A stretch of DNA of 64,000 nt. Origin: Escherichia coli. GTDB lineage: Bacteria > Pseudomonadota > Gammaproteobacteria > Enterobacterales > Enterobacteriaceae. The notes below the pieces were generated by a model. That model saw only the letters and a list, made by a program, of their open reading frames with translations. It had not been told where the DNA came from and did not search any database. Below are positions 12,250 to 48,429 of the stretch, one piece after another. The position numbers were made by a program, and so were the translations under genes. The number at the start of each line of letters is the position of its first letter. Within the stretch, counting starts at the first letter, position 1. The stretch lies in assembly GCF_003334405.1 (NCBI RefSeq), contig NZ_QOWM01000006.1; one strand, 5' to 3'.

Positions 12250-12319
12250 GAAACCTCGTGCGGTGGTTGTTTTTTTGATCTACGCAGTGATGCGTGTGTA
12301 AGTTTGCAATTCCGTTTGT

Positions 12320-12337
12320 TGTATTAATTTGTTTACA
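12320..12337. promoter_or_regulatory. Putative TyrR box upstream of aroP
   Basis: tgtatt-N6-tttaca resembles the TyrR box consensus TGTAAA-N6-TTTACA (right half perfect, left half 4/6); aroP is a known TyrR target. Confidence 0.35.
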
Positions 12338-12741
12338 TCAAAGAAGTTTGAATTGTTACAAAAAGACTTCCGTCAGATCAAGAATAATGGTATGCGGCAG
12401 CGAATGCACCCGCTTTATGCATGGTTGAAGATGAGTTGCTTAAAAAGAAACCGTTTGTAAAGCTCAGCCTCAACCCCTCTCAATATGTAGAATGAATTTA
12501 AATTCGTTTTAATTGAATTAAAAATCACAAAATTGGTAAGTGAATCGGTTCAATTCGGATTTTTATAGTTTAATAATCGTTAAAAAACTCCTTTCCTACG
12601 TAAAGTCTACATTTGTGCATAGTTACAACTTTGAAACGTTATATATGTCAAGTTGTTAAAATGTGCACAGTTTCATGATTTCAATCAAAACCTGTATGGA
12701 CATAAGGTGAATACTTTGTTACTTTAGCGTCACAGACATGA

Positions 12742-46995: not shown

Positions 46996-47580
46996 TTACT
47001 GATAAGTAATGGTGTATGCAGTGTTAGTTTTTACATAACCAGCAGTTGCTGTTTGGTCTGCGACGGCACGAACGTAAGACGCTTTAAAATCATAAACAGC
47101 AGATTTTGTCGTTGCATCCAGGGCTTTAGTATACACATCGCCAGGGTTGTTAATTTGAACCTGTTTGATAGTGGAACCATCAATATTGTGTAGAGCGATA
47201 TTAACGCCGTCAGATGGGTTGTTAATAGACATGTCGTTGTTCAAAGTCCCTTTGCTGTTACCAAAGAAAACAGAACCGAAGGTCATTTTAGCCGTGCTAC
47301 CTGGATTCGGATTTGCTTTGCTGCAGTCAACGGTGATGCTGAAAGGTTTAGCTTTAGCGCCAACGGTGTCATTCAGTACGCCAGCATCGATTTCACCAAC
47401 GGTTGCGGTTTGCAGCAGGATCAGACCATCCTTGTTACCGCCGTCAACGCGGGTTTCACAGGTGTTATCAACAACCAGACCACTGATATTTAACTGACCG
47501 CCGTCCATATCAGCAGAAGCAGTACCTGCAACCATCGCCAGCATAAGACCAGACAGGGCAAAACCTAATTTTTTAGACAT
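46996..47580 (-). CDS. yadN: Fimbrial major subunit
   Basis: 194-aa ORF with signal peptide; first gene of the operon; pilin C-terminal motif (..YTITYQ). Confidence 0.9.
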
Positions 47581-47949
47581 AAAAATCCTTTAATAAAATT
47601 CCATTAGTCAGACTACATGTTTGAAGAATGACTATTCATGACACAAATAGGAGAAACAAATGTTAGATATTAATGAGCAATGATATTTGTTACCCAAATT
47701 TACAACCATTGTTCATTAGGTCGCCTATTGTGCACTTTAGAAGCTTTTGAACAAATTAAATTTACTTAATTCAAAATTAAGTAAAAATAAGTTCACAAGT
47801 GCAATTGGTTAGGGTATGGAGATGGGATTGATATTTATTTATAGGAAGTTATATTATTTCCGCAAAGAGATGTTTAAACTAAAATCGTAATTAAGGAAAG
47901 AGATGAGATATGATTTTCAGAAAATATTTATATTCGCAATATAAATAAA

Positions 47950-48429
47950 TTACCATTTGTTTAATTTGTCAAATGCTCTTGTATGTAAGATTTGACGCAA
48001 CATCTCCCCATCAGGAAACACCAACTCCGGCGCGATTTCAAACAGCGGCCACAGCATAAATCCACGATTCTTCATATCGTAGTGCGGAACGGTCAGGCGT
48101 TCAGTATTTATCACTTCATTACCAAACAGCATGATGTCGAGATCCAGCGTGCGTGGTCCCCAGCGTTCAGCTTTGCGGACGCGACCTTGCTGCAATTCAA
48201 TACGCTGTGTGTGATTGAGTAGCTCTTCAGGTGCAAGAGAGGTTTCCAGCGCCACGGCTGCGTTTAAGTAATCGGGTTGATCTTGCGGCCCCAGCGGTGG
48301 GGTGCGGTAAAACGAAGAAACGGTAAGAATGTGGCTTTCAGGGATATCGCCTAATGCTTTCAGGGCAGCATTGACCTGCTCCAGCGGAGAGGCCAGATTG
48401 CTGCCTATGGCAATATACGCCACTGTCAT
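47950..48429 (-). CDS. folK: 2-amino-4-hydroxy-6-hydroxymethyldihydropteridine pyrophosphokinase
   Basis: 159-aa ORF recognised as FolK; start overlaps the pcnB stop (ATGA-type junction). Confidence 0.95.

Follow-up and report, generated by a model that had tools for sequence, protein, structure and literature searches.

An AT-rich inverted repeat in the H-NS-silenced control region of the Escherichia coli yad fimbrial operon: a candidate protein-binding site

The window, by which we mean the whole 64,000-nucleotide stretch of DNA analysed here, comes from E. coli K-12 and matches MG1655-type genomes at 100%. Its minus strand carries, in order, dksA, gluQRS, pcnB, folK, a 369-bp gap, yadN, yadV and htrE (Table 1). 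With a GC content of 26.6%, vs 51.4% for the window, the gap is the lowest-GC 369-bp stretch of the 64 kb (0.02% of 369-bp windows are equally low), so that the first-pass annotation was right both about its coordinates and in calling it extremely AT-rich. Only one other stretch of the window, at 12294-12693, has a 369-bp GC content below 32%. Since the region spans the entire interval between folK and yadN, it must hold the end of the pcnB-folK transcript, the yad promoter and the yad 5' UTR; this AT-rich DNA, silenced by H-NS, controls the yad chaperone-usher operon (yadN-yadV-htrE-yadMLKC) and also carries the zone in which the pcnB-folK transcript ends.

Table 1 Features in and around the folK-yadN gap, in positions of the window
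Feature	Position	Strand	Description or basis
yadN	46996-47580	minus	Open reading frame list and annotation
yadN Shine-Dalgarno sequence	47586-47590	minus	AAGGA, within the most conserved block of the region (sliding identity 0.87, 15-allele alignment)
folK-yadN intergenic region	47581-47949	minus	369 bp, complete; open reading frames, annotation and GC content
-10-like hexamer	47727-47732	minus	CACAAT, predicted; part of the conserved TGCACAAT block, with 16-bp spacing to the -35-like hexamer
-35-like hexamer	47749-47754	minus	TTGTTC, predicted; within the outer 3' arm, inside the K-12 equivalent of the CFT073 reporter fragment
Extended imperfect inverted repeat (K-12)	47744-47799	strandless	11-bp core, 2 mismatches, 3 bp, outer TGAAC/GTTCA pairing
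Perfect palindrome	47761-47785	strandless	11-bp arms and 3-nt loop, TTTACTTAATT-caa-AATTAAGTAAA
C-rich, G-poor sense tract	47790-47849	minus	13-14 C vs 0-3 G per 40 nt; 100-160 nt past folK
Second perfect inverted repeat	47925-47947	minus	10+3+10; starts 2 nt past the folK stop codon, with UUUUCU next on the sense strand
folK	47950-48429	minus	Open reading frame list and annotation

H-NS silencing of the yad region is already established in the literature. Consistently with an AT content far above the genome average, as in H-NS-bound regions, yadN was H-NS-bound in three genome-wide data sets (PMC5797941), and a CFT073 yadN promoter-lux fusion of ~200 bp was de-repressed more than 100-fold in an hns deletion, an effect reverted by hns in trans (PMC13245861). 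Thus the proposal that this DNA is an H-NS platform, made at first from composition, is borne out by published binding and de-repression. The same fusion responded to human serum, and EC958, an ST131 strain whose own allele was not compared here, was likewise H-NS-repressed and serum-induced; according to this 2026 study, no yad regulation other than that by H-NS has been defined (PMC13245861). Over-production of SlyA raised yadN 2.4-fold, and the LeuO regulon column of the same source does not include yadN (PMC5797941). Earlier K-12 work is reported to link Yad expression to low temperature, anaerobiosis and ArcA. Yad is described as not phase-variable, and the 369-bp gap contains no GATC sequence, as pap-like Dam/Lrp phase variation would need. 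Literature searches on BolA, TosR and SELEX yielded nothing site-specific, and the Reg-Seq preprint includes yadN in its list without giving a result for it.

Within this region the first-pass annotation had singled out a palindrome with 9-bp arms (ttacttaat-tcaaa-attaagtaa) at 47762-47784 as a candidate operator. The palindrome lies exactly there and is in fact longer, with perfect arms of 11 bp around a 3-nt loop. Its chance frequency was estimated from dinucleotide-preserving shuffles of the 369-bp gap: arms of at least 9 bp with a loop of at most 10 nt were present in 6.6% of shuffles, and arms of at least 11 bp in 0.5%, or in 0.7% (14/2000) when the loop could reach 12 nt. The 9-bp version is thus merely marginally unusual and the 11-bp version unusual, and the first-pass concern that such a repeat might be expected at this base composition did not hold for the full-length palindrome, which exceeds what chance would produce. 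In K-12 it forms the core of an extended imperfect repeat, for which the fold of 65 nt reached -14.3 kcal/mol. Across the window we counted six perfect inverted repeats of at least 11 bp vs 0.25 expected; the only two AT-rich ones lie in the folK-yadN gap, and the other four are G+C-rich. Moreover, the median number of places per genome was one for the palindrome, which was likewise present once in each of the K-12-derived records listed; a repeat or mobile element (REP, MITE or IS end) was rejected because the palindrome is single-copy per genome.

A second perfect inverted repeat begins just after the folK stop codon, and none of 5000 shuffles of the gap contained two inverted repeats of at least 10 bp together. 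Its hairpin is weak and terminator-like (-4.3 kcal/mol, z -1.1). The 5' arm was limited to the five K-12-like alleles of the sample, while the 3' arm, GAATATAAATA, was kept in 14 of the 15 alleles. Since GAATATAAATA is retained where the 5' arm is absent, this block is conserved for a reason other than the 47925-47947 hairpin.

The gap is highly polymorphic within the species: among 5426 complete genomes, ~3100 carried a K-12-like version, ~1230 an ST131-like version and ~560 a third family. A sense-strand alignment (A2) was made of 15 divergent alleles from E. coli. Perfect arms of 13–17 bp were found in six alleles belonging to three allele families, namely MS6198 (15 bp, spacer of 5 nt), BY68 (17 bp, spacer of 7 nt), JNE120442, 536 and PAR (16 bp, spacer of 9 nt) and LF82 (13 bp, spacer of 9 nt), the last of which has the same YadN and FolK proteins as CFT073. 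Arms of 15–17 bp were reached in 0/2000 shuffles. The K-12 palindrome is thus the core of a longer inverted repeat, homologous to the 13–17-bp-arm palindromes of the other alleles. Between families, ST131-type excepted, the arms were 0.79–0.88 identical vs 0.51–0.66 for the remaining gap; in ST131-type alleles arm identity fell to 0.50–0.62. Column identity over the 15 alleles was 0.81–0.89 in the arms and 0.89 in the core 9-bp arms, and 0.69 in the spacer, equal to the average of the whole region. Whereas the flanks are rich in indels, there was none within the palindrome in 14/15 alleles, and the distance between its C and its G was constant at 15 nt, the length of the spacer being fixed. 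As in an operator-type site, then, the inverted repeat is non-random, its half-sites are conserved and its spacing is fixed.

The repeat is not preserved everywhere. ST131, EC6868 and P276M-type alleles (L006, L007, L011, L012, L013) share an exact 10-bp deletion (columns 226-235 of A2) which sits between the palindrome and the TGCACAAT block and removes the outer 3' arm, and they also show a GTAAA to GTGGA change. No other indel occurs in the stretch from the palindrome to the promoter block, and the length of the deletion is exactly that of one helical turn. In the O104:H4 allele the palindrome has one mismatch, and in E. fergusonii its only G-C pair is lost and the repeat is degraded. Independently of these changes, strain MDK6L1 (L026, locus 380-1147) carries an IS1 inside yadN, outside the control region, which splits the major pilin gene.

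Orthologous loci of other species were gathered by protein search and contig look-ups. The order pcnB, folK, AT-rich gap, pilin, chaperone and usher is retained in E. albertii, Pseudocitrobacter and some Salmonella, whose gaps did not align with the E. coli gap, so that palindromes found there cannot be called homologous. The Salmonella and Pseudocitrobacter gaps bear unrelated AT-rich palindromes of their own, and the E. albertii gap contained neither a palindrome nor a comparable hairpin after folK. Different chaperone-usher operons lie downstream of folK (L020-L025, L009) in E. albertii, Pseudocitrobacter, some Salmonella and E. coli 2017-02-2CC; their pilins are 47–56% identical to YadN and each operon comes with its own unalignable AT-rich gap. 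This pattern points to the slot downstream of folK as a probable conserved fimbrial replacement site.

The position of the yad promoter relative to the palindrome could be bounded with the published reporter. When mapped on the CFT073 sequence, its primers delimit a fragment running from 12 nt upstream of the palindrome to ~25 nt before the ATG. Since this fragment is active although it includes only 12 nt on the upstream side of the palindrome, the promoter must be located at the palindrome or downstream, and the palindrome is probably upstream of or within the promoter and outside the yadN 5' UTR. The earlier description of the palindrome as part of a yadN leader is therefore probably wrong, and a 5'-UTR hairpin or RNA thermometer was rejected on the same ground.

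To obtain a promoter model, every allele was scanned with a simple sigma-70 weight matrix. Only one promoter-like pair came up repeatedly in the same columns of the alignment, in most alleles, with scores of ~4-6 bits, a weak match to consensus; this is the pair listed in Table 1. Around its -10-like element, five bases of TGnAnAnT (T, G, A, A and T) were invariant in the 15 alleles. Where the 10 bp are deleted, the altered arm GTGGATA supplies a -35-like TGGATA at the same 16-bp spacing. This pair would place the start at ~47720-47721, the centre of the palindrome at ~-52 and give a 5' UTR of ~140 nt. An alternative -10, CATACnCT, upstream of the palindrome was rejected, its sixth position being variable (T/G/C) and its location outside the active CFT073 fragment. 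A consensus promoter scan called no minus-strand promoter. The best consensus match in the gap, TTGATA-16-TATATT (10/12, 47828-47855), is on the plus strand, runs antisense towards folK and resembles the spurious promoters that H-NS-coated AT-rich DNA is expected to contain. A conserved block of the predicted 5' UTR contains a tiny minus-strand open reading frame (47700-47716; MNNGCKFG in K-12), which has 4–8 codons in other alleles, no conserved length and no obvious ribosome-binding site and is probably non-coding.

The repeat could instead act as RNA, in the 3' untranslated part of the pcnB-folk transcript: read-through RNA from folK would fold it into a stem-loop. Once Rho has released the transcript, this stem-loop would mark or protect its 3' end, or it would aid termination itself; either way it would shield the silent yad operon from the constitutive operon upstream. 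The co-directional layout, gene end then promoter, suits this reading, and yadN is up-regulated by the Rho inhibitor bicyclomycin (PMC10980228), although such induction is generic among H-NS-silenced genes. The C-rich, G-poor tract, whose composition is kept in all allele families despite sequence divergence and which has comparable counterparts after folK in other species, may be a rut-like candidate Rho entry site on the pcnB-folK read-through RNA. Pairing is also preserved: in the 17-pair structure 86.5% of cells were paired, vs at most 59% when the partner was slid, and at three pairs both partners had changed (G-C/U-A, U-A/A-U and U-A/A-U). Non-Watson-Crick changes were mostly G.U on the sense strand, and this strand folded better than the antisense (EC6868, -4.8 vs -2.9; ST131, -3.8 vs -1.5 kcal/mol). 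The core helix was independently predicted by RNAalifold, the K-12 core reached -6.9 to -8.5 kcal/mol on the sense strand (z = -3.2), and the long stems of several alleles reached -15 to -17 kcal/mol.

Several results weigh against such a stem-loop. The pairing score was equalled by 14–39 of 500 shuffles, so that the covariation is only moderately significant and the case for selected pairing appears moderate, not decisive. The stem is nearly all A-U, its RNAalifold consensus is just -3.8 kcal/mol, and the core hairpin ranges from 0 to -8.5 kcal/mol across individual alleles. No U-tract is conserved (4–6 U in 9 nt, as composition predicts), the Term-seq supplement contains no folK or yadN 3' end, and E. 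albertii, as noted above, lacks a counterpart. A terminator scan made no call at the palindrome; with this, a single G-C pair and the variable U-tract, a canonical intrinsic terminator, which has a G+C-rich stem and then ~7-9 nt of U-tract, was rejected. An Rfam scan of 47300-48200 with E up to 1 gave no match. Taken together, we regard a folK 3' stem-loop as rather unlikely to be what the repeat is for, but as a serious rival all the same.

Alternatively, the repeat may have no dedicated function. Mutation in E. coli is well known to include the correction of quasipalindromes by template switching, and a quasipalindrome in AT-rich, H-NS-coated DNA could be kept or perfected by hairpin-templated strand switching, its contribution being limited to overall H-NS affinity or DNA curvature. 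Template switching would yield concordant changes in the two arms without selection. The degradation or loss of the repeat in ST131-type, P276M, O104:H4 and E. fergusonii sequences, where the yad operons look intact, fits this explanation, as does the lack of a match to any consensus tested (ArcA, SlyA and H-NS), and the unrelated AT-rich palindromes in the same Salmonella and Pseudocitrobacter slot suggest that composition favours such repeats. However, mutation and composition would have to account for arms whose conservation clearly exceeds that of the flanks and the spacer, for a fixed position and spacer length, and for 15–17-bp arms in three families in which the rest of the gap is 50–66% identical between most, a length that the shuffles never reached. 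On balance, a functionless quasipalindrome seems to us unlikely.

The architecture of the long-armed alleles (17-7-17 in BY68; 16-9-16 in JNE120442 and 536) recalls two structural elements, a cruciform acting as a supercoiling or temperature sensor and a lox/FRT-like core site for a tyrosine recombinase, with its 7–9-bp spacer. Such a hairpin or cruciform switch would couple supercoiling, temperature, a recombinase or a structure-specific protein to H-NS release at the yad promoter. The temperature- and oxygen-dependence of Yad expression reported for K-12 and the different chaperone-usher operons that the folK-downstream slot holds across taxa are in keeping with it. The resemblance is nevertheless purely architectural: there is one site per genome, no recombinase gene is near, the alleles include no inversion or excision variants, and the 11-bp arms and 3-nt loop of K-12 are short for cruciform extrusion. 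We therefore consider a structural or recombination element very unlikely, and the switch that it implies equally so.

The explanation that we favour, though tentatively, is that the palindrome is a dyad-symmetric protein-binding site upstream of the yad promoter, a possibility suggested by the weakness of the consensus RNA hairpin together with arms conserved above background, fixed spacing, a position upstream of the conserved promoter-like pair and a single copy per genome. At roughly -40 to -65, the palindrome would lie directly upstream of the promoter, where a dimeric or tetrameric DNA-binding protein could bind it and modulate H-NS silencing, either as a counter-silencer or activator or as a repressor aiding H-NS. 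Binding and repression by H-NS, the presence of promoter activity and of the H-NS and serum responses in the ~200-bp fragment, and the non-random, conserved nature of the palindrome are shown; the exact promoter (TTGTTC-16-CACAAT) and the binding of a protein to the palindrome are inferred. Some observations count against a protein site. Concordant two-arm changes are needless there and would rather be expected of a hairpin under selection or of correction by template switching, and the palindrome is degraded in the ST131, EC6868 and P276M alleles and in E. fergusonii, while the ST131 strain EC958 mentioned above is still H-NS-repressed and serum-induced. Searches for known sites were negative: the ArcA-P consensus TGTTAATTAAATGTTA (direct TGTTA repeats with 11-bp spacing) had no match with up to 3 mismatches in 47581-47949, the SlyA (MarR-family) motif TTAN6TAA was absent from the intergenic region (locus L001), and the 10-bp high-affinity H-NS motif TCGATAAATT had no match with up to 2 mismatches at 47744-47799, the sole match of this type in the region being at 47942-47951. 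The candidate operator of the first-pass annotation thus appears plausible from sequence comparison, strengthened by conservation, fixed spacing and position and weakened by loss in some lineages.

Extraintestinal pathogenic E. coli are now believed to use Yad fimbriae in infections of the bloodstream and urinary tract, and a conserved dyad at the upstream end of the smallest fragment that responds to H-NS and serum is the obvious first target in the search for the missing regulator. Natural alleles offer ready comparison constructs, with perfect 17-bp arms, degraded arms or the 10-bp deletion. If the hairpin or cruciform switch were true, the repeat would work through DNA structure and not as an operator of the conventional type. 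Apart from its use as a target, the repeat is an ordinary cis-regulatory feature in a known class of silenced fimbrial promoter.

Comparison with known systems sets these readings in context. Like intrinsic terminators, the K-12 hairpin is followed on the sense strand by a T-rich stretch (UUUAAUUUG), but, unlike them, it combines one G-C pair with an unconserved U-tract and is not called by the terminator scan. With the stem-loops at Rho-terminated 3' ends (Dar and Sorek 2018, PMC6061677) it shares the absence of a U-tract, a preceding C-rich, G-poor tract and a bicyclomycin-induced downstream gene, whereas the yad stem is almost wholly A-U and weak in many alleles. Counter-silenced fimbrial promoters (SlyA, LeuO) differ in that yad has no defined counter-silencer site and its palindrome mismatches the SlyA consensus. 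At csgD, MlrA binds a 33-bp site, AAAATTGTACA-N12-TGTACAATTTT, an AT-rich palindromic operator upstream of an adhesin promoter. This site and the yad repeat have in common a long AT-rich dyad, an unconserved spacer of fixed length and a place upstream of a silent adhesin promoter; the half-site sequences differ, so that the resemblance is one of architecture only. Finally, yad has the same make-up as the other H-NS-silenced cryptic chaperone-usher promoters (elf/ycb, sfm and yeh among others), namely an AT-rich upstream region, an operon that looks horizontally acquired, binding by H-NS in ChIP data and strong de-repression upon loss of hns.
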